Source: an uncultured bacterium (GTDB lineage Bacteria > Cyanobacteriota > Cyanobacteriia > Cyanobacteriales > JASJDA01). From it: 64,000 nt of DNA. The notes under the pieces are model-generated. The model saw nothing but the letters and a program-made list of their open reading frames with translations, searched no databases and was not told the origin of the DNA. Numbering within the stretch: position 1 is the first letter of the stretch; each line of letters opens with the position of its first letter. Made by a program: the position numbers and the translations under genes. This document shows positions 20,563 to 60,795 of the stretch, piece after piece. Location: positions 32,599-96,598 of the forward strand of contig CAYWIH010000002.1 in NCBI GenBank assembly GCA_964458305.1. The letters are read 5' to 3'.

Positions 20563-20636
20563 CCTCAATAAAATCTATCTCCGAATGAGATAGATTATCC
20601 AGCAAAAATAAATTTAGATAAAGAGAATTTTCAGTC

Positions 20637-22148: not shown

Positions 22149-22199
22149 ATAATAGTTTTTTTTCACTTATCAAAAATTAAATTTAAAATTACCTGACCT

Positions 22200-23987: not shown

Positions 23988-24006
23988 ATTATTAAGGAGA
24001 TTGACA

Positions 24007-25158: not shown

Positions 25159-25197
25159 TTTCTCTTTATCGCAAACAATATTTTGAGGAAAATAGTC

Positions 25198-26583: not shown

Positions 26584-26636
26584 TTAATTGCAGTAGTCAT
26601 TAAGTTTTTCGTTTTTTCTCAAAAGGTAAATTAAAA

Positions 26637-27764: not shown

Positions 27765-27794
27765 TCGCTCTTTCAGGAATATTATTCGAACGAT

Positions 27795-27840
27795 TTAGGG
27801 TATAAAAAAATAATTTTTTACAAATTTATACCCTAAGTTT
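27795..27840 (+). terminator. Hairpin/terminator-like element between the sulfotransferase and MATE genes
   Basis: Perfect 12-bp inverted repeat TTAGGGTATAAA (27795-27806) / TTTATACCCTAA (27825-27836) with an AT-rich loop, followed by GTTTT. Confidence 0.4.
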
Positions 27841-27876
27841 TCCAAACATCGCGATCTTTCAAATTAAGCACTAAAA

Positions 27877-29271: not shown

Positions 29272-29337
29272 TTTAAACTCGAAAACTTAATAATATCGGT
29301 GTAATTTTAAATCCAATTCCCACTATCTCTAAGAAAA

Positions 29338-30504: not shown

Positions 30505-30650
30505 AATCGGGAGGATTAGTTATTACTAAATATATCAAAAAATTACGAGTGATAAAGACTATTTCACCTTCAATCTAGTTCTTTATAAGATAAGTATTTA
30601 AAGGGATTTTATACGAAGAAAAAATTTACCAACTCGTTGGAAATAAAGCT

Positions 30651-31985: not shown

Positions 31986-32007
31986 TCTAAATAGGAGGTA
32001 AAATTCA

Positions 32008-33240
32008 ATGGGTGCAGATTTAAAAGAAAACCTAAACATGGCATTGCGAACTTTAACCGCCAACAAAATGCGTAATTGCCTGACGATGTTGGGGATGATT
32101 ATCGGTAATGCTTCAGTAATTGCAATGGTATCTGTAGGACAAGGTACTCAGAACGAAATTAAGAAACAATTTGAGTCTTTAGGGACTAATATTTTATTTA
32201 TCGTGCCAGGAGTGCAGCAAAGAGGGCCTCAAGCTGGAGCAGTTCAAGCAAATACTTTGTTGTTATCCGATGCCGAAGCGATCGCTAAAGAAGTTCCAGC
32301 AGTCAGTTACGTTGCTCCAGAAAAAATCGAACGTTTGCGTCTAGTTTATGGCGATCGCGATACGAATGTTAGCGTCACCGGTACTACTGAAACATATCCG
32401 CAAGTTAGAAATTCCGAAGTTGCTAAGGGTCGTTTTTTTAATACCGTAGAGGTTGAAAGTCTCTCTCGAGTAGCAGTACTCGGTAGCGAAACGGCTCGAC
32501 AATTATTCGGCACTCGCTCCCCGTTAAATGAAAAAATTCGCATCGGCGATCTCAGTTTTCAGGTAATTGGGGTGATGGCAGAAAAGGGTGCGGCCTTGGG
32601 TCAAAATCAAGATGAAGTAGCTTTTATCCCTATTGTGGTGATGGCTAATCAATTAAGCGGAAGAGATAACCTCAATACTAGCCCCACAGTACAGACTATT
32701 TCTGTTTCAGCTCGCGATCGATCTAGTTCTAGTGCTGCTCAATATCAAATTACTAACCTGCTCCGTTTGCGTCACAATATTTTAGATGGTGAAGATGATT
32801 TTACGGTTCGCAACCAGCAAGATTTGTTAAAAACTGCCAATAATGTGACTAATTTACTGATTTTGGTTTTAGGTGTGACGGCAAGTATTTCTCTAATTGT
32901 CGGCGGTATCGGTATCATGAATATGATGTTGGTATCGGTAACCGAACGTACCAAAGAAATTGGTTTACGCAAGGCTCTCGGTGCGACTGGTCAAGATATA
33001 TTAATACAGTTCAGTATCGAATCGATCCTTTTATCTACCACTGGAGGAGTTTTGGGTATTGTTTTGGGTGTGGGTGGAATTGTCTTAGTTGCTGCGGCAA
33101 GTCCTTTGAGTGCGATAGTTTCGGGTAATTCAATTTTGTTAGCTTTTAGTGTTTCTAGCAGTATTGGTTTGATATTTGGCATAATTCCGGCTCGTAATGC
33201 TGCCAATCTCGATCCTATTTTGGCATTAAGAAGTAGTTAG
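32008..33240 (+). CDS. ABC-transporter permease of the MacB/DevC (FtsX-domain) type
   Basis: AGGAGG RBS lies 8 nt before the ATG. N-terminus ALRTLTANKMRNCLTMLGMIIG, a MacB periplasmic domain, and C-terminal FtsX helices with ERTKEIGLRKALGA. Confidence 0.85.
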   Translation: MGADLKENLNMALRTLTANKMRNCLTMLGMIIGNASVIAMVSVGQGTQNEIKKQFESLGTNILFIVPGVQQRGPQAGAVQANTLLLSDAEAIAKEVPAVSYVAPEKIERLRLVYGDRDTNVSVTGTTETYPQVRNSEVAKGRFFNTVEVESLSRVAVLGSETARQLFGTRSPLNEKIRIGDLSFQVIGVMAEKGAALGQNQDEVAFIPIVVMANQLSGRDNLNTSPTVQTISVSARDRSSSSAAQYQITNLLRLRHNILDGEDDFTVRNQQDLLKTANNVTNLLILVLGVTASISLIVGGIGIMNMMLVSVTERTKEIGLRKALGATGQDILIQFSIESILLSTTGGVLGIVLGVGGIVLVAAASPLSAIVSGNSILLAFSVSSSIGLIFGIIPARNAANLDPILALRSS

Positions 33241-38429: not shown

Positions 38430-38816
38430 TTAGTTGAGATTATGTTTTAGATCGAGGTGTTTAAAAACGGTACCGATTAAATCTTGAGGAGCATATGGTT
38501 TTGTGATGTAGTCCGTACCTCCTTGTCGTAAAGCCCAAAAGCGATCGAATTCTTCAGCTCTAGAACTGCAAAACAAGATAGGTATTTCTTGCCATTCTTG
38601 GGAACGGGAACGAATTTGACGACAAAACTCCAAACCATTAATACCAGGTAAAATAATATCTAAGAGAATCATATCGGGGAAGGAATTAACTTTTAACCAG
38701 TTCCAAGCGTTTTCTACACTATTTACTTCTCCGACTTTAAATCCAGCTTGTCTTAATAATGCTGACATTAGCCTTCTTTCTGATTTAGTGTCTTCCACTA
38801 CAAGTACAGTCTTCAT
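38430..38816 (-). CDS. Single-domain CheY-like response regulator
   Basis: MKTVLVVEDTKSE...PDMILLDIILPGINGLEF...PILFCSS...ITKPY. All receiver signature residues are present. Confidence 0.9.
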   Translation of the reverse strand: MKTVLVVEDTKSERRLMSALLRQAGFKVGEVNSVENAWNWLKVNSFPDMILLDIILPGINGLEFCRQIRSRSQEWQEIPILFCSSRAEEFDRFWALRQGGTDYITKPYAPQDLIGTVFKHLDLKHNLN

Positions 38817-39832
38817 TCTTATGATTTTAACTTTGTTATTTTTACTAGGATCTATAACAGATCTAATAACAATAAAAAGTGATTAAATGGTGACTTATAT
38901 TATCTCTCCTCAAATTTAAACAATCTTGAAAAATGATTAAAAAATAAATCCAAAGGTTGCCAATGTAATTAATTATCGTCGGCTTTTGCCTCCTAGGCAA
39001 AAGTTTTGCTTCTTTCGGTAGTTACTAATACCTTAGTTTAAGACCGCCCCTTCTCTAAGGGAAACCGATCTTTAAAGGATACAGTCCGCTTTCAGGAATT
39101 GGTATAAGAAGAGATGCAAAGCAAGTCTAATCGCTTTGTTCAACTTGCTTTTGTTTAATATTTAAAAAGTTGTAAGTCCCCAATGAGTTAAACAAAGTTT
39201 GAGGGGAAAAGTGGTTACAAAAATAAGAGGCTGAATGAAGATAATTTCGATTGTTGTAAGCTTGATAAGAGTAGAAAAAATCGTGAAGCTGGTGGACATT
39301 GAAAATATTTTAAGGCTGTTTCAAATGCATTCTATCATAGAATCAATCGACTGCAGCCTTTAATTTGACGAAAATTAGATAATATAAATTTTATTTGCAA
39401 TTAATTGTCCGAGCTGGGTTGTTCAAAAAAATCCAGGTTATTTTTGTTAAATTTTATTTTAATTGACTAATAGTTTAAGCAAAGATGATAACATTGTTAT
39501 TTGTAAAACTATTAAATTAATCTGGTCATCGATCGCTACATTATAAGTCAAAACTAATTAGTAAGATTTGAGGTGATTTCTAGATTTTAAAAATGTTAAT
39601 TTGCTTGTTAAGGAGAATTAAAAGGATCGAAGTTCGTTAGTTGTAATAATACATCAAATATTTCGAGCTTCAATTTTCGATCTCAGAGCGAACTGGATAA
39701 TTAGATCGCGTTTCATTATTAGATTGCAATAAAACAAGCAGAGCGATCGATAAATTAGCGGAAGTTTTTTAGGAAAGCGAACAATTAAAATGTAATCAAA
39801 AGAAATAAAAATATAAAGAAAGAGTAAGAATA

Positions 39833-40899: not shown

Positions 40900-41901
40900 A
40901 TGGCTGTAATAAACGGGACAATTTCTGATGATATTTTATCGGGAACATTTGGAAATGATGTTCTTCAAGGTTTTGAAGGTAATGATGTTTTAAATGGAGG
41001 ATCGGGGGACGATCTTTTGAGAGGAGGAGGGGGAAACGATACTCTTAATGGAGGATTCGGCATCGATACTATAGATGGTGGATCGGGATTCGATCTGGTT
41101 GATTATAATTATTTAAATGGAGTAGTTAATCTCGATCTCAATACTGGTATCGCCAGGTTTCCGGGCAATACAACTTTAACCGAAACATTAATCAGTATTG
41201 AAGATGTCATTGGTAGTAATGGTAACGATACTTTAATTGGCAACAATGTCGGCAATCAACTTTTTGGCAGTAACGGTAACGATCTTTTGAGAGGAGGAGG
41301 AGGAAACGATACTCTTAATGGAGGATTCGGTATCGATACTCTAGATGGTGGATCGGGGATAGATCTGGTTGATTATAATTATTTAAATGGAGTAGTTAAT
41401 CTCGATCTCAATACTGGTATCGCCAGGTTTCCGGGCAATACAACTTTAACCGAAACATTAATCAGTATTGAAGATGTCATTGGTAGTAATGGTAACGATA
41501 CTTTAATTGGCAACAATGTCGATAATTATTTTGTTGGCAGTAAAGGAAACGATTTTTTATTCGGACAAGGTGGTAACGATATTTTAGTAGGAGGAGGAGT
41601 TGCAAATAATAGTTCTGAATTTGATATCTTAGAAGGAGGATTCGGAGCGGATACTTTTGTATTGGGCGATTCTATTGATACTTTTTATAAAGGAGATGGT
41701 TTCGCTACTATTACTGACTTTTTTGCGATCGAAGGTGATGTAATTGAAGTTAGCGCACGATACAACTACGAACTAAAATCAGCCTTTGGTGGAGTGGATC
41801 TTGTTTATCAGGGAGATGCGATCGCTTTTATTGATGGGGTAAGTTTAAACGATATTAATCTTGCACCAGTTTCTTCAGGTGGCAATTTTATTTACGTTTA
41901 A
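40900..41901 (+). CDS. RTX-type (hemolysin-type) calcium-binding repeat protein
   Basis: Repeated GGxGxD nonapeptides ([33 protein letters not shown]...). No N-terminal signal peptide, consistent with a T1SS-type substrate. Confidence 0.85.
41011..41521 (+). repeat. Near-identical 241-bp segments repeated with a 270-bp period inside the RTX gene
   Basis: 41011-41251 and 41281-41521 differ at only a handful of positions (for example GGCATCGATACTATAGAT vs GGTATCGATACTCTAGAT). They encode duplicated 80-aa blocks. Confidence 0.9.
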
Positions 41902-47585: not shown

Positions 47586-48209
47586 TTAATTAAATGCTTC
47601 TCTTGCCATACAAGCGCGGCCGCTAACTGCTATTTCTGGATCTTTTTGCTGCAAATGTTGAAATTTTGCCAAAATAGGCTTGACAAATTCACTATTTTCT
47701 GAAACTCTAGCTAAAAGTGCTTGCAAACCAACTACAGCAGCATAACGAACTACCCATTCCCCATCTTCGCAAACTAACAATAAAACATCGAGAACTTGTT
47801 TTTGAGCCGGTAAAATATCCTCTTGGGGTAATTTAGACCAATTGATAAATCCCAAGCCTCTAGCAGCCGCACGACGCACGCTCAAAGAAAAATCGCTGAC
47901 AGCAGCTTTTAACAATAAATCGAGGGCGCGAGGATCGCCGATCCCAGCAAAAGCACGAATAGTCCAAGCTCTCGCACCATAATTATAATCGTCAAGATTT
48001 TCTAATAAATAAGGAACTGCTGGCTCGCCGATATCGATCAATCCATCGACAGCAGCAACGGCAGCTCCGGGATTGTTATAACCCAATATTTCAATTAAAG
48101 TAGGGATTGCTGCGGGATCTTTTCGATCGGCTAATGCTTCGGTTGCTTCTAACAAACCATCAGCAGAATCAGCTTTTTCGACAGCTTCTATATATTTTTG
48201 TACGGACAT
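47586..48209 (-). CDS. cpcF: Phycocyanobilin lyase beta subunit (E/F-type, HEAT repeats)
   Basis: IPTLIEILGYNNPGAAVAAVDGLIDIGEPAVPYLL and following HEAT repeats. Sits downstream of cpcE. Confidence 0.85.
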   Translation of the reverse strand: MSVQKYIEAVEKADSADGLLEATEALADRKDPAAIPTLIEILGYNNPGAAVAAVDGLIDIGEPAVPYLLENLDDYNYGARAWTIRAFAGIGDPRALDLLLKAAVSDFSLSVRRAAARGLGFINWSKLPQEDILPAQKQVLDVLLLVCEDGEWVVRYAAVVGLQALLARVSENSEFVKPILAKFQHLQQKDPEIAVSGRACMAREAFN

Positions 48210-48245
48210 TTTTTGAAAGTAACGAGTAGATAATTTCTGATTTCT

Positions 48246-48356
48246 ATACCGACTTACCGGGAGAGAATAGACAGCTTTAGTAACGATCGATCGGTAGGAA
48301 TCTATAAGTTATCAATTCAAGGAAAGCTGTCTACTCCTTCCACCCAAGGTACGTCG
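48246..48356. repeat. Long imperfect inverted repeat filling the cpcE-cpcF spacer
   Basis: Left arm 48246-48278 (ATACCGACTTACCGGGAGAGAATAGACAGCTTT) and right arm 48323-48356 (AAAGCTGTCTACTCCTTCCACCCAAGGTACGTCG). The 11-bp core is perfect. The outer ends resemble the GGTACGTC dispersed motif. Confidence 0.6.
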
Positions 48357-48360
48357 CTTA

Positions 48361-49185
48361 TTACAATAGTCCGTCCATTAACTCCATTAATTTAATACTT
48401 TCTTCAGATAAAGCAGTAATTTCCGACTGCTTTGTTAATTGAAATTCTAATAATCCTCTCAAAGCGATTAATTTCATACTATTTTCAGCTAAAGTATTAA
48501 AAATTGGCTCTCCAGCAGGATAATAACCGATCGCCCCTAAATCTATTAAAGCCGATCGTCGCAGTTGTAAATTATCTCCAGCCAAAGCCTTAACCAGAAT
48601 ATCCCCGTAAACAGAATTACCAGTTAATTGATACATCGCTCGAGCTGCTGCATACTGTACTTTAGGGACTCGATGTTTTAAAAAAGGCTCGATCTCCTCT
48701 TGAGCTTCTGTTGCTCCTAAAGTTCCTAAAGCTTCGATAATTGCCTCGTAGGGCTGCACTAGATGGGGTTTTCCAGGGACTTGCTTAGCCTCCGCTACAC
48801 CACCTGCAAGTAACTTTAAAAGAGGCTGAATACAACTGGCATCGCCAACAGTTTCTAAAGACTGTGCTGCAGCTTCTCTGACGTAAACATCGGGAAAATC
48901 CAAACAGCGAATTAATGGCTCGATCGCTCTTTTATCTCCCAGTTTACCTAAAGCTCTAGCTGCATTTCTTCTTAAAGGATAACCACCGTCGGGTGCTCGA
49001 TCTTCAGAGTCTTCTAAAGCCAATAATAAAGCATCGATCGCCGCAGGTGTTGCCACTCTAAATCTTCCCAACCACCAAGCAGCATAATAACGCTGACCTA
49101 AATCTTCTTTTTGCAATAATTTAGCGATCGCTGTTTCTTCGGTTAACGATTCTGGTTCGCCAAACTCGGGATATTCTTGTTGCAT
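48361..49185 (-). CDS. cpcE: Phycocyanobilin lyase alpha subunit (E/F-type, HEAT repeats)
   Basis: LGQRYYAAWWLGRFRV signature and multiple HEAT repeats. 274 aa. Directly downstream of cpcA. Confidence 0.85.
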   Translation of the reverse strand: MQQEYPEFGEPESLTEETAIAKLLQKEDLGQRYYAAWWLGRFRVATPAAIDALLLALEDSEDRAPDGGYPLRRNAARALGKLGDKRAIEPLIRCLDFPDVYVREAAAQSLETVGDASCIQPLLKLLAGGVAEAKQVPGKPHLVQPYEAIIEALGTLGATEAQEEIEPFLKHRVPKVQYAAARAMYQLTGNSVYGDILVKALAGDNLQLRRSALIDLGAIGYYPAGEPIFNTLAENSMKLIALRGLLEFQLTKQSEITALSEESIKLMELMDGLL

Positions 49186-49207
49186 TTGCTCGCAATAAAC
49201 GTAACAA

Positions 49208-49269
49208 TGCCCGGAACAGTAAACAAATACTAGCGCGCTTTAGCCGGCATTCGCATACTTTTCCGGGCA
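49208..49269 (-). promoter_or_regulatory. Stem-loop downstream of cpcA (possible attenuator separating cpcBA from cpcEF)
   Basis: 9-bp inverted repeat TGCCCGGAA (49208-49216) / TTCCGGGCA (49261-49269). On the minus-strand transcript it is followed by a U-rich TTGTTACGTTTATT. Confidence 0.4.
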
Positions 49270-49353
49270 AGATCTTCAACAATCTCGATCGATTGCTTAA
49301 ATTTCTCGATCGACTAGAGACTCAATTTTTGCCCCCAGAAGTCGCTCTTCAAA

Positions 49354-49842
49354 TTAGCTGAGAGCGTTAATTGCGTAGTCGAAATAGTTGTTAGCTTCGG
49401 TAGCAGATTGACCTTGCAAACCGTGGTTAGCTTTGATGTATTTTAAAGCTTCGATGTACCAGCTAGGAGATAATTCGTAGCTGCGGTTGATTTCATCTAA
49501 GCCAGCAACTAAATACTCGTCCATGGGGCCAGTTCCACCAGCTACTAGACAGTAGGTTACCATACGCAAGTAGTAACCGATGTCGCGAGAGCATTTTGCT
49601 TTACCTTCTTCGGTAGAAGCGTAGTTGGGCCCGGGAGTAGAAGTAGTGTAAGGGAATTTGCTGTACACTGCTTGAGCTGCTCCGTTAACTAAGCTTTGAG
49701 AGTTAGCAGTTAATGTTTTTGCTGCTTCTAAAGCGGCACTAGCTCTTTCAAAACGACCGAAAGCGATTTGAATTTCGGTGTTGCTTAAGAAACGACCTTG
49801 AGAATCTGCTGCGGATACTGCTTCGGTTAGAGGTGTTTTCAT
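49354..49842 (-). CDS. cpcA: Phycocyanin alpha subunit
   Basis: 162 aa. [25 protein letters not shown]...[29 protein letters not shown]...[18 protein letters not shown] is near-collinear with C-phycocyanin alpha. Confidence 0.95.
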
Positions 49843-49900
49843 TTTTTTCGATTTCTCCCTGATATTTTGCTAAAAAACGATGCTTAATTGAATGGTTTGC

Positions 49901-50419
49901 TTATGCTACTGCCGCTGCTGCGCGATCGAAGTAGCCGGAAATTTCAGAAGCAAGCGCGCTGCAATCGCCAGGAGTGATACCGTTAGGATCGTTAACGATC
50001 GCTAATGCTGCTTCTTTCATTTTTTGTACGCCAACTGCAACAGAACTTCCTGGAGTTCCTAATGCTAGGTAAGTTTCGCGTAAACCGTTCAAGCAACGAT
50101 CTTCTAGTACGGAAGCATCGCCAGAGAAAATCGAGTAAGTTACGTAACGCAAAATAATTTCCATATCCCGCAAGCAAGCTGCGTTGCGACGGCTAGTGTA
50201 AGCGTTACCACCAGGAGCGATTAACTGGGGCTGCTCTTTGAATAATTCGCGAGCTGCGTTTGTTACGATCGCCGAAGCGTTGCTAGTAATGCGGTTTACC
50301 GCATCCATGCGCTTGTTGCCCTCTTTAACCATGTTGTTAAGAGCGTCGATTTGAGAGCTGGATAGAAATTCCCCTCTTGCATCTGCTTGAGAAACTACTC
50401 TAGTGAATGCGTCAAACAT
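49901..50419 (-). CDS. cpcB: Phycocyanin beta subunit
   Basis: 172 aa. [20 protein letters not shown]...[16 protein letters not shown]...[14 protein letters not shown], with Cys-82 and Cys-153 contexts. Confidence 0.95.
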
Positions 50420-50749
50420 TTAGATCTCCTGTCAATAAGTTATGGTCTTATTTTTTAGTTGCGATCGCAACCATTTTTTTGGCAAAACAGGTGGATGTTT
50501 CCACTACTGTTTTAGTTTCCTTTATTTTTCTCAAAAGTTAAAGCCATTATCCATGATATGACTCAAACTATTTTTTTAAGAAATATCAGAAAACTTTATG
50601 TTTTTATCATATACCGCTTTATCGCGTTTATTTGCCTTTTTGGGGTTACTCTAGTTTCTCCCCAGGTAAATTTTATACAATCCTACGATATTTTTGCTCC
50701 CCAGATCTTGTAAATTTTTTAAGCTTTTTCTTAATAAAACTTAATATTA

Positions 50750-51517
50750 TTACAAGCTGATGATGCCCCAAGCTGCTAGAGCGACGGCGATCGCGATCCC
50801 AGCAAGTGCCGCTAATCCCCCGTAAAATATTGTTTGGGCGATCAGGGCGTATGCTTTGGAGTAAGGGGGACGTTGCCAACTCCAGCGATAGCCGGATGTC
50901 ATCCAAGGATATTGTTTGAATTCGTGGGAAAAATAGCCGATTTCTTCCAATTTAGCCCGATAATCTGCACCGTAACGAGGCATTCTCGCAAAAGGCAAAT
51001 CTCCTTGGGATCTTTGCGGTAATATCCGCCTTCTTTGATAGGGAAGGGTATCCTCGCCAAAGTTCTTCAAATATTCCTCGCTAGTCAGCAAGGCATCTAC
51101 GAACCCTTCTAAGCCTTTAGTCGCCAAAACGATCGACCAAGCCATTTTTTCGCGATCGTTGTAAATATCCCTTCCTAAAACGCGCCGAACGCACATTTGC
51201 ACGAAACGATAATTACTATTTGGCTCGTAATTGCGTCGCCGAAAAGTTTCTGAAAGCAGCAAGCCCCGCACGAATTCCCTGACGGTAATTTTTCGGTTTC
51301 TCAGCTGAGATTCTAGAAAAACTTGACGGTTGCTAGTTAAAAGTTGCTGTTCGTTAAAGATTTGGCGGTAAGCGGCTCTAATTAGCTCGTTGATTTCTAC
51401 TTGATTTGGTAGATGAGCTGTTGTATAATTTCTAGGCTGCTCTTCTCCTGGCACTTCAAAACCTGCTACGCGCTGATTTTGACTGTTAGGGGGATAGCTC
51501 AATAAAGGAATAGTCAT
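50750..51517 (-). CDS. cpcL: CpcG-family rod-core linker with C-terminal hydrophobic anchor (CpcL/CpcG2 type)
   Basis: PBS-linker domain (LIRAAYRQIFNEQQL...VREFVRGLLLSETFRR...RFVQMCVRRVLGR), plus C-terminal AYALIAQTIFYGGLAALAGIAIAVALAAWGIISL. Confidence 0.8.
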   Translation of the reverse strand: MTIPLLSYPPNSQNQRVAGFEVPGEEQPRNYTTAHLPNQVEINELIRAAYRQIFNEQQLLTSNRQVFLESQLRNRKITVREFVRGLLLSETFRRRNYEPNSNYRFVQMCVRRVLGRDIYNDREKMAWSIVLATKGLEGFVDALLTSEEYLKNFGEDTLPYQRRRILPQRSQGDLPFARMPRYGADYRAKLEEIGYFSHEFKQYPWMTSGYRWSWQRPPYSKAYALIAQTIFYGGLAALAGIAIAVALAAWGIISL

Positions 51518-51700
51518 ACCTTTGCTTGTCCTCCGCGAACGTTAAATTTAAAATAAGCCTTTAATTATTCCCATCTACGATGGTCGAGAAGGATTGGCTG
51601 AGTAATTTTACTCGTCTTTTTCCTTCTCTTTCGAGACTAAAGGAAGATCGGGCTATATTGCTATGTCTACGTCAAAAACAGCAATAATTTGTAATATTTA

Positions 51701-52456
51701 CTACAAACTCGGTAATAATTGAGGAATTTTTCTCGGCAAATCGAATAAAAAACCGTGAATGTATTCTTCTGTCCATTCTTCCCCGTACAAGCGAGCAAAC
51801 ATCCCCCGAGCCGGGTCTTTTTCGGCGCGATATTTGACATAACGCAATTGAGCTTGTAGGATATGCTTTTGCTTGTCAATGTCGTCGATCGCCACTGCTG
51901 CGCTAACAAAATCTAAATAAGCGGTGAGATAGTCGCAAAAAGCCGAATATACTCTAGTTTTAACCGTTTCTGTTTTTTCGGGCCGCGTCCACAAAAAAGC
52001 TTCCGAAAAGAAGGGTTTTGCTTCTTCTGGAAAATCTCCACCCCAACTTAAATGTTCTTGGTGGGTGCGAAATATTGGTAAAATCGGTTCGGTATATTTA
52101 TCTCGATAAGCTGGGTCGTCCCGAAAAAGAGGCTGCAGATCGATCGCGATTAGATGACCTCCTGGTAGGGTAACTAAATCCGCACCAAAAAAGGGTAAAT
52201 CGTAATTTGGCTGGGGAAAAATTACAAAATTAAGTACTTGTAAAGCTCCTCCTCCTCTGACGTGTGCCGCACGAATTTGCCGCAATTTTGGGGTAGAATA
52301 AGCAACCGAAGTAGTAATGACTGTTTCAAGTCTTTTTCCTTTTCCGGTTGTTGTTTCTTGGCGATCGAATCCTGGGGGAATTGGATAAGGAGATAAATTT
52401 AATTTATCTGATAGAAGATCGATCGCAAAATCTAAAAAAGGTTGATACAAACTCAC
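51701..52456 (-). CDS. pebB: Phycoerythrobilin:ferredoxin oxidoreductase
   Basis: [21 protein letters not shown] and [32 protein letters not shown] match PebB. GTG start at 52456. Confidence 0.85.
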
Positions 52457-52485
52457 GTCAATTAAATTTTAAATTGATTGATTTT

Positions 52486-53217
52486 TTATTTATTTGCTGT
52501 CACAGCTAAAGAGCGAGCATCTTCAAAGAGAAATTCGTGCAAAAAGCGATCGGCCCATTCGCTACCGAAATAACTGCTAAATAAACCGTGAGCGGGATCT
52601 CGCTCCGCGCTATAACAATCGTAATCTTTTTGAGCGGTAACGATGCGATCTATCTCTTGAGGTTCGGTTAAAAATTCTGCATCTTCGAGGATCTGCCAAT
52701 ACAATTGAATGTATTCTTTGTAAGCTGGAAACAGTCTTTTTACTATAGTTTCTTTGTCGGTTTTGGCAAAGAGAATGTATTTAGAAAAGTAGCGATTGGC
52801 ATCGTAAAATTTCATGGGAATATTTTGAGCTAAATCTCGATATCGATCGCGAATTTTTGCCATCGGTTCGACATATTTATCTTGATAAGCTCGGTCGTTA
52901 AATAACGGTAAAAAATCTAAAACTACTAAATTTTTTACTTTGCCAAAGGTTAAAAAATCTATGCCTAAAAGAGGGATATCGTAATTATGTGCGGGATAGA
53001 TAACGCTATTAAAGATTTGAGCCGATTCTCCAGCATCGATATAGGTATAACGAATTTTCCGCAGTTGGGGAGATTTATAGCACCAACTTTGAATTGTGGC
53101 TTGGTTTTTACCCCGATCGCTTTGGTTGAATTCCAATCCGGGCGGAATCGCTCTTTTTTCTAAATTAAAATGCTTAAATAGCTCTTCTTCTAAATATTCC
53201 CTAAAAATTTGATACAT
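52486..53217 (-). CDS. pebA: 15,16-dihydrobiliverdin:ferredoxin oxidoreductase
   Basis: IQSWCYKSPQLRKIRYTYIDAG...LLGIDFLTFG...YSAERDPAHGLFSSYFGSEWADRFLHEFLF matches PebA. Lies upstream of pebB as in known pebAB operons. Confidence 0.85.
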   Translation of the reverse strand: MYQIFREYLEEELFKHFNLEKRAIPPGLEFNQSDRGKNQATIQSWCYKSPQLRKIRYTYIDAGESAQIFNSVIYPAHNYDIPLLGIDFLTFGKVKNLVVLDFLPLFNDRAYQDKYVEPMAKIRDRYRDLAQNIPMKFYDANRYFSKYILFAKTDKETIVKRLFPAYKEYIQLYWQILEDAEFLTEPQEIDRIVTAQKDYDCYSAERDPAHGLFSSYFGSEWADRFLHEFLFEDARSLAVTANK

Positions 53218-53320
53218 AGATTAAGACTCGGATACTATAGCTCTGTTGCGAGGATATCGGATCTCCCAAAACCTCGTCTCATATGCGATCGACAAAGCAA
53301 CATTACTTAATATCGTTCTC

Positions 53321-53908
53321 TTAAATACCGGCCCGAGCAAAATTATTTTGAATCAGATCTTCGATGCGATCGCCCGACAAACAACGACGCTCCGAACAAT
53401 AAGTCATTAAATTCACGCCATTCATCATTTTGACCGTACTGACGCGAACTCGGAAATCATCGGTAACGAACCAACAACGCTCCTGACCTTGATTGTTATC
53501 GTAATCGGTATCGATAGTCAAGATACCATCTCGGCCGAACCAATAGCGACTGATTACGGGAATACTTTCAACGTAACCGCGATCGCGAATTAATTTTCCG
53601 CTCAATTTGCTGTCATCGTCGGGAATATCGATTAAAATTGCGGCATAATCTGGATTGGGTTCGCGATCGTCTAAATTTCCCTGCCAACTGAAACTTGCTC
53701 CTCCGGTTGCTCGATCGGGATCTATGCCTTGAGAGGAGCAAACTTCTGCTATTTTAGAATCGTCTGGCTCGATAACTGTGACGATTAAGTTAGATTCTCC
53801 CGATTCGTCGGCAGCATTGTCAAAATGATGTACTGTTCTTTGGGTGAACCAAGTTCCTTCGCTTTTGCGAAAAAAGTCCATCATCGTGGTTGGCGGTTTC
53901 AATCTCAT
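53321..53908 (-). CDS. S/U-type phycobilin lyase (CpcS/CpeS family)
   Basis: MMDFFRKSEGTWFTQRTVHHF is the family N-terminal signature, on a lipocalin-like length. The true start is probably at Met-9/10 (53884/53881). Confidence 0.8.
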   Translation of the reverse strand: MRLKPPTTMMDFFRKSEGTWFTQRTVHHFDNAADESGESNLIVTVIEPDDSKIAEVCSSQGIDPDRATGGASFSWQGNLDDREPNPDYAAILIDIPDDDSKLSGKLIRDRGYVESIPVISRYWFGRDGILTIDTDYDNNQGQERCWFVTDDFRVRVSTVKMMNGVNLMTYCSERRCLSGDRIEDLIQNNFARAGI

Positions 53909-54112
53909 TGTTTTTTGCTCCGCAATTTTTTTTGTGCCTTCGGCTTTATCTTTAACTATTTTCTAGATATACTTTAAAAATGCAATTTTTAGCGATTTTA
54001 CTAGTTTTATTTTTTTTTACAAAAGTTTATTTGCAGTTATTAATTAAAAATTTAAAAAATGCCAAAATTATGCAAAGATCGCGGGCAATAAAAATATAGA
54101 CCAAATGTAATT

Positions 54113-54940
54113 ATGCAAACATCCCAACAAAGCCAAAAAAAACACCAAGAGACGATCGAATTGCTGCGATCGGGAGAACAATTGCAAGATATTGAATTAT
54201 CTCATGCCGATTTGTACGGCATTTCTTTAAGAGGTGTTAATTTAACTGGTGCTAATCTCAATAAAGTTAGTTTGACCAATGCTAGATTGACTAATTCTAA
54301 TTTGAGCGGGGCTAATTTAGCAGGTGCGGATTTGCGCGGTGTCGATTTTAGCAGGGCTAATTTAAGCGGGGCTAATTTAAGCGGAGCTTATTTACAAAGA
54401 GCCGATTTGCGTCAAGCTAACTTAAAAGATGCTATTTTCGAAGGAGCTAAATTACAAGTAGCATTGTACGATTCGGTAACGGTTTGGTCGCCAGAATTTA
54501 ATTATCAAAACTCTGGAGCGGTCGGCCCGGGTGCTATACTCAACGGAGCATTTTTAAATACAGCCAATTTGCGCGGAGTCGATTTGCGCGGAGCTAAACT
54601 AATCGGGGCTTATTTGAGCGGTGCGGACTTGATCGGGGCTAATTTGGAGAATGCAGCTTTGAGCGGAGCTAATTTACAAAGAGCTTTCTTGAGCGGGGCT
54701 TATTTACGCAATGCAAGATTGAGCGGAGCAGAATTACAAGGGGCCGACTTGCGGGGTGCGGACTTAACCGGAGCAGAAATAAGTCATTTAAACGGTATTG
54801 CTGGAGCTGATTTTAGCATGGTAGTGGGATTGAATGAAGGGACGATCGCCCAACTATTAAGCAATCACTCTCAGATCGAGTTGACTACTTGGAATCCTTA
54901 CACTCGCAACAATACCAAAAATAGTCTGACATTGGAGTGA
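54113..54940 (+). CDS. Pentapeptide-repeat protein
   Basis: Long runs of A(D/N)LxG pentads (ANLSGANLAGADLRGVDFSRANLSGANLSGAYL...). Confidence 0.9.
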   Translation: MQTSQQSQKKHQETIELLRSGEQLQDIELSHADLYGISLRGVNLTGANLNKVSLTNARLTNSNLSGANLAGADLRGVDFSRANLSGANLSGAYLQRADLRQANLKDAIFEGAKLQVALYDSVTVWSPEFNYQNSGAVGPGAILNGAFLNTANLRGVDLRGAKLIGAYLSGADLIGANLENAALSGANLQRAFLSGAYLRNARLSGAELQGADLRGADLTGAEISHLNGIAGADFSMVVGLNEGTIAQLLSNHSQIELTTWNPYTRNNTKNSLTLE

Positions 54941-55309
54941 AAATTGTAACTTATAGCAGTTGAAATAAAGGTTGGGAGATGTTCGATTGGCAAAATGGTT
55001 AAATATTAAGGATTATTCCTCTGACTTGTGCTAAGAAGGGTCGATCGCTTCTATTGCAATCGACTTTTAAGTAAAAAAATTGCTAAATAGTTATATAAAT
55101 TTTAAATAAAACTAAAATTACTAAAGTTGCAAACAAATCAAGATGGTCTGGGCAACCCTGGCAGTAAAGCCGAAGCTAGAAAGATAAAAATTTTTCGGAA
55201 GATCTGAAAAATAATTTATCATCTTATTATTGTCAACTGCTTTACAAAGCAACCAAAAATTACTGCAAAATTCTACCTATTGTAGTGAATTTTTAATAGA
55301 TACCATCTA

Positions 55310-58216
55310 ATGACTCAGCAAAAAGAACGCGCCAAATCATCCCTCAAAGAGGGAGACAAATTAGACTTAGACGGTCTACAACTGAGATTCTCAGAAAAAT
55401 CAAAATCCCAATTAAAAACCAAAGCCACTGTCATAGCAAGCATATTAGGTATAATACCGGCTTTGATAATTGGAGGATCTACTTACTATTTTGCCGGCCG
55501 AGCTATCGATGAGGAGATTGTCAGAGTAGAACGAGAAGAAAATCAAGTTTTAGTTGCCAATAAATTAGAACAGCAAAGACAACTACTGACAATATTGTCC
55601 TTCACAACGGTAATTGCAGCATTATTCGGAGGCGGGATCGTCGGTTTTTGGACTAATCGTGCCATTAATTCGGCAATGAAAATTGCTAAAAACTCTAGCC
55701 AGTTGTCACCAGAGGCAGCAAAAACAGAGAGAACCGAATTATTAACAGAAGCGATCGGCCACATTCGTGCTTGTATCAAAGAGCAAGATATTCTCGATGC
55801 AACGGTAGAAGAGCTACAAAGAATTCTCAAATGCGATCGAGCAGTCGTTTATTCCCTCGAAGCAGAATCTCGAGCTACAGTAGTGGCTGAAGCCGTTCAA
55901 CCGCGCTGGCCCAGAGCTTTGGGACGGAAGATCGAAGATCCTTGTTTTGATGCTAAATACGCTAAAGAATATGAAAACGGTCGAGTTAGGGCGATCGAAA
56001 ATATTGATAATAGCGGCATGACTCGGTGTTACATCGACCAACTCAAAAAATTTAAAGTTAAAGCTAATTTAGTTACTCCTATTGTCAGCGAAGGAAAATT
56101 GTTGGGTTTGTTAGTAGCTCATCAATGCGACGGCCCCCGATATTGGCAGCAGTGGGAAGTCGATCTGACGGCTCAGCTGGCATCCCAAGTCGGTTTTGCT
56201 CTCGATAACGCTCGAGTTTTAGAACGAGCCACTCAAATCCAAAAACAGTTAGAAAACGAAACAGAATGGACGCAGTATTTTACCGATGCGATCGGCTATA
56301 TTCGCGCTTCCTTGCAAGAAACAGAACTGCTCAAAGCCGTTGTTAAAGAAGTTCGCGGAGTTCTCAGTTGCGATCGAGTGGTAATTTATGGTTTAGAAGC
56401 AGAAAATCGCGGCGTAGTAATTGCAGAATCGGTTACTCCGCGCTGGCCGAGAGCTTTAGGGCGCAAGATCGACGATCCTTGTTTTGATGCAAAATACGCC
56501 AAAGAATATGAAAACGGTCGAGTTAGGGCGATCGATAATATTTATGAAGCGGGGATGACTCCTTGTTACATCGAACAGTTAGCAAGATTGGAAGTTAAAG
56601 CTAATTTAGTCGCTCCCATTCTCAATGAAGGAAAATTATTGGGTTTGCTAGTAGCTCACCAATGCGACGAACCTCGATTTTGGCAACAATTAGAAATTAG
56701 ATGGTTCGCTCAAATTGCCATTCAAGTCGGTTTTGCGATCGATAACGCTCGAGTTTTAGCAAAATCTAACCAGATCCAAAAACAACTAGAAACTGAAATC
56801 GAGCGAAATGAGTTTTTTACAAATGCGATCGGACATATTCGCAGTTGTATTTCAGAACAAGGAATTATCGAGATTTCCGTTGAAGAAGTCCAAAAAATTC
56901 TTAATTGCGATCGAGTGGTAATTTATGGACTAGAAGCAGAAAATCGCGGTGTGGTAATTGCCGAAGCAGTCCAACCACGCTGGCCCAGAGCTTTGGGAAG
57001 AACGATTAAAGATCCTTGTTTCGATGCAAAATACGAAACAGAATATCTCAACGGCAGAGTTCGGGCGATCGATAATATTTATGAAGCAGGGATGACTTCT
57101 TGTTATGTCGAACAGTTAGAAAGATTGGAAGTTAAAGCTAATTTAGTCGCCCCAATCATCAAAGAAGGAAAATTATTGGGTTTGCTAGTAGCCCATCAAT
57201 GCGAAGCACCTAGAGTTTGGCAAGAATTAGAAATTAATTGGTTCGCTCAGCTAGCAGTGCAAATCGGCTTTGCAATCGATAATGCCCGTATTTCAGAGCG
57301 TTATGCTGCAATGGAGAAAAAACTAGCGCAAATGTCTCGAGACGATGTATTTATGGCTCGAGCCGAGCTACAAGATGGACATTTATTGCAAGCTGAGTTA
57401 CCGCAACTCTCAGGCCGCAGCGACATCGATATTGAGAATTTTTTAGCCAGGATCGAAACTCAAGAACAAACGATCGCTTCTTTTGCCGATCGCATTCAAG
57501 AAATAGTTAATTATAGCTCCGAGCTGGCCGAGGGAGTAGAATTACTAGATCGCAATGCTCGCGAAGATCTTAACGATTTAAACATCTTGAGAGAGCCGAT
57601 CGAACGATCTTTAGATAATGGAGGTGCGATCGCAACTACAATCGAGGGAACTACACAAGCGATCGATAAAGCGAAATCTCTTTTTAACCAACTCAAGGAG
57701 ATAGAGAGTTTAATTAGCGATTTTGGCGAACGCATTAACGAACAAACTATGAATTTAATTATTGAAGTTGGTAAGGGCGAACAACAGCTCGATCGCGATT
57801 CGATCGCCGGGATGGCCGATCTAATTTATGCTTCGACTCAGCAATTAACTTCTACAGTTGGAGAAATTAAACCAGTAGTTAGCGAAATCGATCGCCATAG
57901 CGCAGAAATTACTGCAGGAGTCGATAGTTGGCAACAACAAGATTCCCAGCAAAGGCAATTATGGCAACAGATCGATTCTCAATTCCAAAAACTGCTTGCA
58001 GAATCCGACGAGCGAATTAATTGCCTCGATCGAGTTACTAAAACTGCTGCAATTCAATTGCAAACTTCAACCACAGCTAACCAATCTCTTTTAGAATTAA
58101 GTTCTCTTGCCAAACAGACTTCAGAACAATCTAGCCTCTTAGCTAACTATCTTAACGAGCTAAAATCATTCGCCCTGAGAATCCATAATTCTCCAGTCGA
58201 ACCACCTAGAAATTAA
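55310..58216 (+). CDS. PixJ-like photoreceptor: two TM helices + three DXCF-type cyanobacteriochrome GAF domains + divergent MCP signalling domain
   Basis: Each GAF has DPCF and a second Cys exactly 28 residues later (DPCFDAKYAKEYENGRVRAI.NI...GMT.CY), then LLGLLVAHQC. C-terminal coiled-coil region with ERINEQTMNLIIEVGKGEQ in place of the MCP hairpin-tip consensus. Confidence 0.8.
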   Translation: MTQQKERAKSSLKEGDKLDLDGLQLRFSEKSKSQLKTKATVIASILGIIPALIIGGSTYYFAGRAIDEEIVRVEREENQVLVANKLEQQRQLLTILSFTTVIAALFGGGIVGFWTNRAINSAMKIAKNSSQLSPEAAKTERTELLTEAIGHIRACIKEQDILDATVEELQRILKCDRAVVYSLEAESRATVVAEAVQPRWPRALGRKIEDPCFDAKYAKEYENGRVRAIENIDNSGMTRCYIDQLKKFKVKANLVTPIVSEGKLLGLLVAHQCDGPRYWQQWEVDLTAQLASQVGFALDNARVLERATQIQKQLENETEWTQYFTDAIGYIRASLQETELLKAVVKEVRGVLSCDRVVIYGLEAENRGVVIAESVTPRWPRALGRKIDDPCFDAKYAKEYENGRVRAIDNIYEAGMTPCYIEQLARLEVKANLVAPILNEGKLLGLLVAHQCDEPRFWQQLEIRWFAQIAIQVGFAIDNARVLAKSNQIQKQLETEIERNEFFTNAIGHIRSCISEQGIIEISVEEVQKILNCDRVVIYGLEAENRGVVIAEAVQPRWPRALGRTIKDPCFDAKYETEYLNGRVRAIDNIYEAGMTSCYVEQLERLEVKANLVAPIIKEGKLLGLLVAHQCEAPRVWQELEINWFAQLAVQIGFAIDNARISERYAAMEKKLAQMSRDDVFMARAELQDGHLLQAELPQLSGRSDIDIENFLARIETQEQTIASFADRIQEIVNYSSELAEGVELLDRNAREDLNDLNILREPIERSLDNGGAIATTIEGTTQAIDKAKSLFNQLKEIESLISDFGERINEQTMNLIIEVGKGEQQLDRDSIAGMADLIYASTQQLTSTVGEIKPVVSEIDRHSAEITAGVDSWQQQDSQQRQLWQQIDSQFQKLLAESDERINCLDRVTKTAAIQLQTSTTANQSLLELSSLAKQTSEQSSLLANYLNELKSFALRIHNSPVEPPRN
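55745..57355 (+). repeat. Three tandem 537-bp (179-codon) coding repeats = the three GAF modules
   Basis: Landmarks recur at exactly +537: GCGATCGG at 55751/56288/56825, and CC(G/A)CGCTGGCC at 55901/56438/56975. Long stretches are nearly identical. Confidence 0.9.
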
Positions 58217-58222
58217 TTTACA

Positions 58223-60034
58223 ATGTTATCCATTATGGCCCTCTCTTGGGAAGTCGATCGAGAAATTTACCAAATTTTTATTCAAGAAACCCTTCAATTA
58301 TTGGAGCAGATTGAAGAGATTTTGGTGGGTTTCGATCGCGATTGGAATCAAACTAAAATTGAAGAACTTGTCCGTGCGGCCCATACAATTAAAGGGGGTG
58401 CGGCCCAAATTGAATTTAGCGAAACTCAAATCATAGCAGCTCGTCTCGAAGTTTTTTTTCGCCGTCTCAAGCACGAATCTGTTAAAGTAGATCTCGATTT
58501 GTTAAACCTTTTAATCGAAGGCTACGAGTTATTAAGGTTATCGGTAATAACTCGCATTGAAAATAACGGCCATCTCGATAATAGTGAAGATTTAATATTT
58601 CGATCGGAATCTATTTTTACTCAGCTAGAGGCGATTCTCGAAGACAACTCAGCCGCAGAAGATCGCAATATTCCTAAAATTACCGATGTCGAACCAGATC
58701 TTAAAAATTTAATTTGCAATACAGAAATAGCTGAAGCTCTCGAAGATCTCGATCGGGTTTTAATCGAAGCAAGCGAAGCAGATATCTTAAGCCAACTTCA
58801 AGATCGGATCGCAATTTTCCTCGATTTAGGGACAGTTTTAGGCATATCTGAATTTGTTACTATCGCCCAAACTACTCGAGCTACTTTAGAAGCAAGTCCT
58901 CAAGCGGCTCGAAATATCGGTCAGTTAGCTAAAGTTGGTTTTCAAGCTGCCTTACAAGCATTATTAAACGATAATAACCAAAATAGTAATCCCCCTTCCT
59001 TATCTAATGGTTCGATCGAGGATTGGGAAAATTTGGAGATAGATTTATTTTCACCAGATTTAGATCCGATTGTTTTCCAAAATTCGATCGAGCGAGCAAA
59101 ATCAGTTTTTTTAGAAGATTCTCAAGCTCTCAAACCGCCAAAATTACCAGCTGTAGCGGTTAAGAAAGAATTACATTATAACATTAGCAAATCTTTAGTT
59201 TGGCAGTTTCAGAATAATGTTTTTATCTTACCCTACAGAAAAATCGAAAAGAATTTAAGTGCTAAATTTGTTAAATTTATTTACTCGGATGGTGAGAAAT
59301 ATTTACGCTGGCAATCTCAATTGCTTCAAGTTTACCAACTATCTGAATTACTGAGTTATCAATACCCGCAAACTGCGCTCGAACCAAGCAAACAAAAAAA
59401 AGATTCTTCGATCTTAATAATCAATTTTCGCTCCCTGATTATTGCCTTAGAAATACGGATCGATCGCATATTTACTGCTTCAGAATTAACAATTAAACCT
59501 TTCAGCCTCGCTCTAACTCCACCTAATTATATTTATGGCTGCATCATCTTAGCAAATTCATCTTTAGCTTGCGCGATCGACGTTCCTTTATTATTAACTT
59601 TGACCTTCGATAGTCCTCAAAACACAAGTAATTCTCTCGATCGAGTTAATTCAAATAATAATAAACAACCGACTATTTTAGTAGTCGATGATTCTTCTGC
59701 TTGGAGACAAACGTTATTATTAGCCTTACAAAAAAAAGGTTATAAAGTCCTACAATCAGCAGATGGAAAAGAAGCGATCGAACAATTACAAAATAACTCC
59801 CAAATTCAATTAATTATCAGCGATTTAGAAATGCCTTATATCAATGGCTTCGAATTGCTTGCTTACTGTCGCGAAGATCTATTATTAAAGGAATTGCCAT
59901 TTATTTTATTAACTACTCGCAACAGCGATCGATATCGAAAGCAGGCAAAAGAATTAGGAGTTACGGAATATTTTACTAAACCTTATAACGAGTCAGAATT
60001 ATTAGATGCTTTGCAATCTTATTTACAGTCTTAG
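58223..60034 (+). CDS. CheA-like scaffold lacking the kinase core: Hpt + CheW-like + receiver domains
   Basis: Hpt motif LVRAAHTIKGGAAQ. CheW-like region (LVWQFQNNVFILPY...ILIINFRSLIIALEIRIDRI...). C-terminal receiver ILVVDDSSAWRQ...LIISDLEMPYINGFEL...ILLTT...FTKPY. No N/G1/G2 ATPase boxes seen. Confidence 0.75.
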   Translation: MLSIMALSWEVDREIYQIFIQETLQLLEQIEEILVGFDRDWNQTKIEELVRAAHTIKGGAAQIEFSETQIIAARLEVFFRRLKHESVKVDLDLLNLLIEGYELLRLSVITRIENNGHLDNSEDLIFRSESIFTQLEAILEDNSAAEDRNIPKITDVEPDLKNLICNTEIAEALEDLDRVLIEASEADILSQLQDRIAIFLDLGTVLGISEFVTIAQTTRATLEASPQAARNIGQLAKVGFQAALQALLNDNNQNSNPPSLSNGSIEDWENLEIDLFSPDLDPIVFQNSIERAKSVFLEDSQALKPPKLPAVAVKKELHYNISKSLVWQFQNNVFILPYRKIEKNLSAKFVKFIYSDGEKYLRWQSQLLQVYQLSELLSYQYPQTALEPSKQKKDSSILIINFRSLIIALEIRIDRIFTASELTIKPFSLALTPPNYIYGCIILANSSLACAIDVPLLLTLTFDSPQNTSNSLDRVNSNNNKQPTILVVDDSSAWRQTLLLALQKKGYKVLQSADGKEAIEQLQNNSQIQLIISDLEMPYINGFELLAYCREDLLLKELPFILLTTRNSDRYRKQAKELGVTEYFTKPYNESELLDALQSYLQS

Positions 60035-60438
60035 TATCCGATCTAAATAGAAGCATTTAATGATTAGGGGGACAGGGGGAGTAAGAAATGGAGAGAATTC
60101 ATTTGGCAATAGTTTTCAAATGAAGAACCATATTTTAAACCCTCTCAATTATTATCATCTAATTTAGTCCGTTAGTTTTTTAAAGAATACTATTAAGCAA
60201 ATTTAGAACAACAAAAGTTTGTTATTTGAGTTCATTAAAAATTAAAATTCTATAGAATAATTAGCTAATTAAATTCTCTTAATATAAAAAATATAAAGTT
60301 ATTTCTAAATCCGTATTTATCTCACTTGTTACGAATTTTTACTTGAAATATATTGATATATAGAATTAACTTTTAGGCTTTCTAGAAAACTCTTAAAAAT
60401 TAGTTTTCGCTTAAAAATAATAAACAGGAATAAATATA

Positions 60439-60795
60439 ATGCTTAAAAAAATTGGCTTAATATCAATTGCCATTATTTGCTTTGGATGCTCTAATTTTGA
60501 ATCTTCAGAAGATAAAACATTTAAAAAAATATTGGATAATTGGATATCGACAAGTCACGACCCTAAAATAAAGCAATATTTTTCTAATAAAATTAGATAT
60601 AAACAAGCTAAAAAATCAGCATTATACTATTGCAAACTTAAAAGAAAACATGGTAAAGAAATTGCCAAATATATGTTTTTAAATAAAAGTTTAGAATTGA
60701 GCTTACAAGAAAATCAAAAAGATACTTCTAATCTTTTTTTAGTAAATTTATATATTGAAAACTCTGCCGATTTAAGCTATTGTCCTGATAAATAA
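60439..60795 (+). CDS. Small putative lipoprotein (118 aa)
   Basis: MLKKIGLISIAIICFG-C lipobox-like signal. Lys-rich mature part. AGGA RBS. Confidence 0.45.
   Translation: MLKKIGLISIAIICFGCSNFESSEDKTFKKILDNWISTSHDPKIKQYFSNKIRYKQAKKSALYYCKLKRKHGKEIAKYMFLNKSLELSLQENQKDTSNLFLVNLYIENSADLSYCPDK

Follow-up and report, generated by a model that had tools for sequence, protein, structure and literature searches.

The closest described systems to the gene pair considered here are the Tax1 phototaxis receptors TePixJ and SyPixJ1, blue/green cyanobacteriochromes (CBCRs) of Asp-Xaa-Cys-Phe (DXCF) type. Two adjacent genes in a 64,000-nucleotide stretch of DNA from an uncultured bacterium of the Cyanobacteriales (the window, by which we mean that whole stretch), a receptor and its downstream partner, share with these systems an N-terminal transmembrane anchor, a DXCF GAF domain with a pair of Cys residues 28 apart, a C-terminal hairpin of the methyl-accepting chemotaxis protein (MCP) type, and a relative of PixL as the gene that follows the receptor. 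Unlike TePixJ and SyPixJ1, the receptor possesses three GAFs in tandem, no detected HAMP domain, Tyr in place of His523 and the further substitutions W499Y, F465L and Q509R. Its MCP region falls below the Pfam threshold (15% identity to canonical PixJ C-termini), the partner lacks a kinase core, and no pixG, pixH or pixI adjoins the pair. PixJ of Synechococcus elongatus (P0024), which we recovered as a homologue, likewise fuses a tandem DXCF GAF array to an MCP domain, but has five GAFs that are all Cys-His, a HAMP domain, a textbook tip and a Pfam MCPsignal match.

The partner has parallels of its own. In the split kinase CheA3/CheA4 of Rhodobacter sphaeroides, reportedly described by Porter and Armitage, CheA3 is said to carry P1/Hpt and P5 without P3-P4 and to be phosphorylated in trans by the other CheA. 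The partner resembles CheA3 as a CheA-family protein with a P1/Hpt domain, a P5/CheW-like domain and no P3-P4 core; CheA3 differs in having no C-terminal receiver and in belonging to an unrelated lineage, and phosphorylation of the partner in trans is our proposal. A second likeness is to CheV, in that a CheW-like domain precedes a receiver whose phospho-acceptor residues are intact. At a probability of roughly 55%, we favor the reading that receptor and partner form a two-gene light-signaling cassette of a cyanobacterium probably of Prochloraceae type, in which three two-Cys GAFs and a diverged MCP hairpin would act with a kinase-less partner whose phosphoryl groups flow via an external kinase. 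In our judgment the diverged hairpin, conserved together with a kinase-less PixL descendant, is more notable than the Cys-Tyr pair found in the GAFs.

The receptor protein is intact, and its parts are as follows.

55310..58216, plus strand: receptor gene of the PixJ family, 968 aa, ATG start (open reading frame (ORF) call, three Pfam GAF matches, homologues annotated PixJ)
55412..55489, plus strand: predicted transmembrane helix 1, aa 35-60 (mean of 2.06 by Kyte-Doolittle over 19 residues)
55583..55651, plus strand: predicted transmembrane helix 2, aa 92-114 (Kyte-Doolittle mean 2.02)
55694..56230, plus strand: GAF module 1, aa 129-307, with DPCF Cys212 (codon 55943) and Cys240-Tyr241 (56027)
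56231..56767, plus strand: GAF module 2, aa 308-486, with DPCF Cys391 (codon 56480) and Cys419-Tyr420 (56564), aligning without gaps to TePixJ 3VV4
56768..57304, plus strand: GAF module 3, aa 487-665, with DPCF Cys570 (codon 57017) and Cys598-Tyr599 (57101)
57305..58213, plus strand: diverged MCP-type signaling hairpin, aa 666-968 (profile and structure-model evidence)
57728..57796, plus strand: off-consensus hairpin tip ERINEQTMNLIIEVGKGEQQLDR, aa 807-829, with a predicted turn at K822-D828

Three GAFs are the only domains that Pfam places above threshold in the receptor, and no HAMP domain was detected between the GAF array and the hairpin. The two hydrophobic segments, with about 30 residues between them, indicate a membrane-anchored protein that is nearly without an external domain. 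An earlier note on this DNA had proposed a PixJ-like receptor with three DXCF GAFs and Tyr in place of the usual His after the canonical Cys. Pfam and the TePixJ alignment agree with it, and the coordinates it gave for the DPCF Cys, the second Cys at +28, the Tyr codons and the module spacing were all confirmed. Scans for promoters and terminators over 53800-60600 stayed at shuffle background and were uninformative.

The signaling end of the receptor departs furthest from the known systems. MCPsignal gives no match in the whole receptor at E<=0.01 in Pfam, and on the isolated C-terminus the profile (PF00015) stays at 13.9 bits, below its cut-off of 34.6, while covering positions 16-169 of its 172. 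The earlier description of the tip as off-consensus holds, and this region does not score normally. The segment ERINEQTMNLIIEVGKGEQ occupies aa 807-825 (nt 57728-57784), and the tip, NEQTMNLIIEVGKGEQQLDRDSIAGMA, misses the near-invariant MCP tip consensus, of which only two Asn, a Glu, a Lys for Arg, one Arg and two Ala remain; other residues stand at the small-residue positions and in place of the GRGF Phe. The C-terminus is nevertheless colinear with canonical PixJ C-termini, and an hhalign comparison with twelve of these returned a probability of 99.4% (E 3.5e-21) over 261 columns at 15% identity. In the PDB, a profile built from four sequences of the close orthologue group matched the chemoreceptor PcaY (E 0.005), colinearly and with the tips aligned. 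AlphaFold2 (AF2), working from a shallow alignment (pLDDT 69 overall, ~70-83 in the helices), predicts two long helices (fragment residues 43-156 and 164-295) and places the turn, K822-D828, at the aligned tip; the 11 best Foldseek matches to this model in the PDB are all chemoreceptors, at weak scores (E 3e-3 to 3e-2).

To place this divergence among related receptors we scored them with a hidden Markov model (HMM) built on canonical PixJ C-termini. At 44 bits, the window protein compares with medians of ~385 for 89 receptors without a two-Cys DXCF GAF and ~100 for receptors that contain Cys-Tyr. The MCP domain is diverged (<150 bits) in 117 of the 119 receptors with at least three Cys-Tyr GAFs, whereas 16 Cys-Tyr receptors carry fully canonical MCP domains by the same scoring; the association between Cys-Tyr and a diverged MCP domain holds only for arrays of at least three Cys-Tyr GAFs. 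The C-terminus is a true but far-diverged MCP homologue, and one that follows a clade-wide trend as opposed to being a private oddity.

Only 6 nt separate the receptor stop from the partner gene, and the two are probably co-transcribed. The partner comprises the following features.

58223..60034, plus strand: partner gene, 603 aa, Hpt - second helical bundle - CheW-like - REC (Pfam, BLAST, HMM, AF2)
58382..58384, plus strand: His54 codon (Hpt motif RAAHTIKGG), putative phospho-acceptor
59171..59608, plus strand: CheW-like beta-rich domain, aa 317-462 (Pfam CheW, AF2 strands, alignment to the PixL P5 region)
59672..60028, plus strand: receiver domain, aa 484-602, with the Asp534 codon at 59822-59824 (Pfam Response_reg, Foldseek)

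Pfam recognizes Hpt (1.6e-11), Response_reg (1.3e-22) and, marginally, CheW (23.8 bits against a cut-off of 23.5) in the partner, and finds no match to HATPase or dimerization domains. How the kinase core was lost can be read from a BLAST comparison with the PixL-like protein P0141: partner residues 5-259 align with P0141 1-252 and residues 317-598 with P0141 705-1010, so that ~450 aa of P0141 (253-704), including the dimerization and ATPase core, are replaced in the partner by a variable linker of ~57 aa. In agreement with this, an HMM of the PixL kinase core found no match at E<=10 in four kinase-less members, while PixL scores 620-630 bits. The AF2 model (14 sequences, pLDDT 72) resolves an Hpt bundle at 9-140 and another helical bundle at 158-249, then a disordered stretch over 252-310, and after it the beta-rich CheW-like domain (317-462) and the receiver (484-602); Foldseek searches with it returned receiver-domain (CheY-type) matches only. 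Across 14 kinase-less homologues, some only 35% identical, no change occurs at His54, Asp489, Asp490, Asp534 or Lys586. Three ORFs elsewhere in the window, at 2-1216, 1398-2297 and 38433-38882 (all minus strand), also match the REC profile of the partner family.

Among full-length proteins the nearest relatives of the partner are ~20 kinase-less proteins of the same build, followed by PixL proteins of ~1000 aa that possess both H-kinase_dim and HATPase_c. Set against CheA and PixL, the partner has the P1/Hpt domain and the P5/CheW-like domain and lacks the P3-P4 core; it is equally not a CheV, which consists of CheW and a receiver and nothing else, since an Hpt domain and a second helical bundle precede these in the partner and its sequence derives from PixL. 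Judged on sequence, it is a PixL/CheA descendant apparently built to carry phosphoryl groups and unable to make them. The rewired output suggested by the earlier note is thus backed more strongly than its author could have known.

The pair is no isolated occurrence. We found a kinase-less Hpt-CheW-(REC) gene adjoining a multi-GAF DXCF receptor at ~9 loci, listed here by locus.

L001 (TARA) and L091 (JGI): syntenic pair loci
L003 and L009: pair loci in other neighborhoods, Prochloraceae paralogues
L008: pair locus in a Fischerella metagenome-assembled genome
L010, 5385-9713: pair locus in Nostoc sp. T09, with an 819-aa receptor carrying two Cys-His DXCF GAFs
L004/5: pair locus in Pleurocapsa PCC 7327, with a partner that has no REC
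L089 and L090: truncated pair loci

As the Nostoc sp. T09 receptor is of the Cys-His type, kinase loss is not tied to the Tyr variant. A scan of metagenomes with the C-terminal profile returned only two loci. A separate gene, encoding a PBP_like_2 protein (~347 aa, phosphate-binding-protein-like), adjoins related multi-GAF receptors in four separate genomes (L002 6878-7954, L004 6736-7779, L006 5723-6763 and L008 5622-6665) and is absent from the window.

Recurrence bears on whether the pair could be the decaying remnant of a Tax/Pix phototaxis operon that no longer signals. A sub-threshold MCPsignal score and a deleted kinase core are what such decay might leave, and rates of non-synonymous relative to synonymous change (dN/dS), computed for the window against L091, a syntenic and 96%-identical relative from a JGI metagenome, are raised in the MCP-like region (0.52, from 11 synonymous and 21 non-synonymous changes) and in the partner (0.42). 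Yet both ORFs are intact, the hairpin has kept its length and register, the same architecture recurs at the ~9 loci in Prochloraceae, Fischerella, Pleurocapsa and Nostoc, and the phospho-acceptor His and Asp do not vary among the 14 homologues. The GAFs themselves are under strong purifying selection, with dN/dS of 0.09 (GAF1), 0.08 (GAF2) and 0.21 (GAF3) in the same comparison, and the receptor gene as a whole stands at 0.18. Because of these conservation data we regard decay as very improbable and as the weakest of the explanations weighed here.

The sensory half of the receptor closely follows the DXCF plan. A repeat search places its three modules, of 179 aa each, in register at a spacing of 537 nt (Tandem Repeats Finder missed them, its longest period being 500 nt). 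All three possess DPCF with a second Cys exactly 28 residues on, and the codon after this canonical Cys is TAC, TAC and TAT, that is Tyr, in the contexts MTRCYIDQL, MTPCYIEQL and MTSCYVEQL. In a phmmer search of the PDB, GAF2 aligned to the GAF of TePixJ (3VV4) at E 1.1e-37 with no gaps over 139 residues, DPCF falling on C494 and Cys-Tyr on C522-H523; the gap-free alignment upholds the earlier equation of the +28 spacing with the C494/C522 pair. The modules are ~42% identical to TePixJ and all retain R459, Y463, D492, C494, F495, R507, C522, Q526, N535 and H553 (TePixJ numbering), with pocket differences at H523Y, W499Y, F465L, Q509R and E497A. They have the homology to solved DXCF CBCRs, the Asp-Xaa-Cys-Phe motif and the canonical Cys at C522 that mark this class, and depart from it in Cys-His, arguably a non-defining feature, which is Cys-Tyr in all three. 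Given the gap-free alignment, the largely kept pocket and the low dN/dS, the modules look functional.

The earlier note had taken His after the canonical Cys to be near-invariant, which our data do not bear out. Among the DXCF GAFs of the 120 closest homologues, most of them from Pleurocapsales, Hydrococcus, Hyella, Xenococcaceae and Prochloraceae, 447 are Cys-Tyr and 60 Cys-His; for the top 150 cluster representatives (50% identity, drawn from 1.84 billion proteins) the figures are 120 and 123. Both collections lean toward relatives of the query and are no census of all CBCRs. Pooling these relatives, Tyr occurs in 564 of 747 unique two-Cys domains, and H553 is kept in 549 of the 564 (themselves chosen for having D492, C494 and C522). 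Cys-Tyr is also present in single-GAF, TePixJ-like receptors that have textbook MCP tips and adjoin a kinase-bearing PixL, in a Xenococcaceae genome (L011) and in Moorena (L020). PixJ of Synechococcus elongatus and NpR6012 of Nostoc punctiforme (P0503) are, by comparison, all Cys-His. In AnPixJ/PtxD-like receptors of the Nostocales with 6-7 GAFs (L040, L047 and L052; P0396, P0401 and P0468), Cys-Tyr occupies one or two GAFs, namely GAF3, which has no DXCF Cys, and the last GAF (DPCL...CY), and His-to-Tyr thus recurs in other CBCR lineages. Cys-Tyr is, as far as sequences tell, a common natural variant and no anomaly of this gene. Of the idea that it might be a common and already characterized subclass, the first part stands. 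As to the second, our literature search, which did not extend to the Rockwell/Lagarias DXCF papers of 2011-2015, where an earlier characterization is possible, returned no description of a Cys-Tyr DXCF class, and within the same limits none of a kinase-less PixL.

This frequency also bears on the proposal that, in a cell producing phycoerythrobilin (PEB), Tyr-for-His signifies a changed chromophore chemistry, with binding or discrimination of PEB or phycourobilin, or a shifted photocycle, in place of the standard PVB blue/green cycle. The setting lends it some appeal: upstream, in divergent orientation, are a cpeS-type lyase and equivalogs of pebA and pebB, the latter two 2 kb away, an arrangement that L001 and L091 share. 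The pocket carries the further changes W499Y, F465L, Q509R and E497A, and in TePixJ crystals H523 sits on a pocket helix and moves upon photoconversion (PMC6955287). Against this, Cys-Tyr GAFs occur across many taxa and contexts without nearby peb genes, among them the TePixJ-like receptors with canonical MCP tips and an intact PixL, and conservation extends to every other residue that the two-Cys cycle requires. PEB cannot photoisomerize at C15=C16, and it would be a poor fit with a second Cys that is so strongly kept. Altered chromophore chemistry is accordingly the less compelling account of the Tyr, and we consider it distinctly unlikely; that the Tyr adapts these sensors to PEB-rich cells is a possibility. 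The paper on Slr1393g3 that might have offered a parallel, a His-to-Tyr change beside the Cys that improves PEB binding, is concerned with Trp496 instead.

We can now set out how the cassette would work. Most likely each GAF binds a phycocyanobilin-derived bilin through the +28 Cys, with the DPCF Cys as a light-labile second linkage that would yield a blue-absorbing and a green/teal-absorbing state; the Tyr at the H523 position probably tunes this photocycle without abolishing it. The signal would then pass along a continuous helical spine from the GAFs into the hairpin, whose diverged tip may dock on the CheW-like domain of the partner, the two making a private receptor-scaffold pair. Light would in this manner control phosphoryl flow through His54 and Asp534 of the partner, the phosphate coming from, or being drained away from, a kinase encoded elsewhere, for example a canonical PixL. 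The route could be trans-phosphorylation by analogy with Rhodobacter CheA3/CheA4, a CheV-like arrangement, or a role as phosphate sink. A related Prochloraceae genome (L036) encodes both a conventional receptor and a kinase-bearing PixL, which makes a trans-acting kinase plausible.

Several of our observations weigh against this scheme. The window, over its 64 kb, encodes no kinase core, so the source of phosphate is hypothetical; Pfam support for the CheW domain of the partner is marginal (23.8 versus 23.5 bits) and AF2 confidence is moderate (pLDDT about 70). The PCC 7327 partner has no REC, and the related receptors L006 and L007 have no adjacent Che-like gene, being orphans or members of receptor clusters. 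We found no published experiment on bilin binding or photoconversion by any Cys-Tyr DXCF GAF. Finally, dN/dS is higher in the MCP-like region (0.52) than in the GAFs, and so it is in the partner (0.42); the values come from few substitutions, and the difference could reflect relaxed constraint.

A further option is that the pair signals without being phosphorylated by a CheA-type kinase, as a CheV-like adaptor or as a stand-alone Hpt-REC phosphorelay that an unrelated histidine kinase feeds, and that its target may lie outside motility, for instance in the adjacent phycobilisome-rod/PEB operon. CheV adaptors are CheW-REC fusions, an architecture that the partner contains. The receptor gene is divergent from cpeS-pebAB-cpcG-like-cpcBA-cpcEF, an arrangement that recalls sensor-beside-target layouts and would suit a role resembling chromatic acclimation, and no pixG/H/I-type genes adjoin the cassette. 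Paralogous cassettes, though, reside in unrelated neighborhoods (L003, L008, L009 and L010), the cassette is without a DNA-binding output, and beyond the kinase-less proteins of its own build the partner finds its nearest full-length relatives in PixL proteins. We rate signaling without a CheA-type kinase as rather unlikely, and continue to prefer a cassette served by an external CheA-type kinase such as PixL.

A more ambitious form of the cassette reading, which we put forward tentatively and with considerable doubt, is that it represents an undescribed, kinase-less branch of cyanobacterial chemotaxis-like signaling. A Cys-Tyr array would feed a private, co-diverged tip/CheW pair, an Hpt-CheW-REC protein would be trans-phosphorylated by the canonical PixL or drain phosphate from it, as the cyanobacterial equivalent of the CheA3/CheA4 split kinase of Rhodobacter, and insulation from the main receptor array would come from the diverged tip. 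A tractable case for pathway splitting, insulation and kinase sharing is offered by a conserved receptor whose partner, a CheA descendant, has its phospho-sites and no kinase; all three are open questions for the multiple Tax/Pix systems of cyanobacteria. CBCRs are moreover studied as color sensors and optogenetic parts under sequence rules that derive from few model strains, and hundreds of DXCF domains from nature break the 'Cys-His' rule; they make up a large spectroscopic class on which we found no published characterization. Were the partner no more than a CheV-like adaptor and the GAFs blue/green sensors of the ordinary kind, this would be an ordinary divergent paralogue.

The 'high similarity' that the earlier note saw in the GAF modules was overstated, the modules being mutually 63-72% identical in protein, 70-78% in DNA and 56-68% at third codon positions. 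A neighbor-joining tree of the modules of ten related receptors groups GAF1 by position across proteins, whereas GAF2 to GAFn group within each protein; the window GAF1 is orthologous to GAF1 of P0005 and P0010, and its GAF3 is sister to GAF2. For the internal modules this pattern fits lineage-specific duplication or concerted evolution, and to that extent the proposed amplification or gene conversion may stand. The word 'recent' does not apply to the window protein, as its copies are 28-37% diverged in protein. In the TARA orthologue P0005 (L001 7022-10441), which has four GAF modules, GAF3 and GAF4 are nearly identical, which points there to a very recent duplication of modules.

Directly upstream of the receptor lies one further gene.

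54113..54940, plus strand: pentapeptide-repeat protein gene, 275 aa, kept in the syntenic loci L001 and L091, membership of the system uncertain

A 15/30-nt tandem repeat at 54297-54394 is the coding repeat of this gene. The operon beyond it (47586-53908, minus strand) encodes a cpeS-type lyase, pebA (355 bits), pebB (448 bits), a CpcG-like rod-core linker, cpcB, cpcA, cpcE and cpcF. By score its subunits are of C-phycocyanin type, with 332 bits for beta and 308 bits for alpha, and the presence of phycocyanin-type subunits in one operon with PEB synthesis suggests a PEB-bearing phycocyanin. Elsewhere in the window, twelve consecutive large ORFs of 375-595 aa on the same strand (18868-33240, plus) make up a long gene cluster, and a 333-aa protein with RTX calcium-binding nonapeptide repeats is encoded at 40900-41901 (plus strand).

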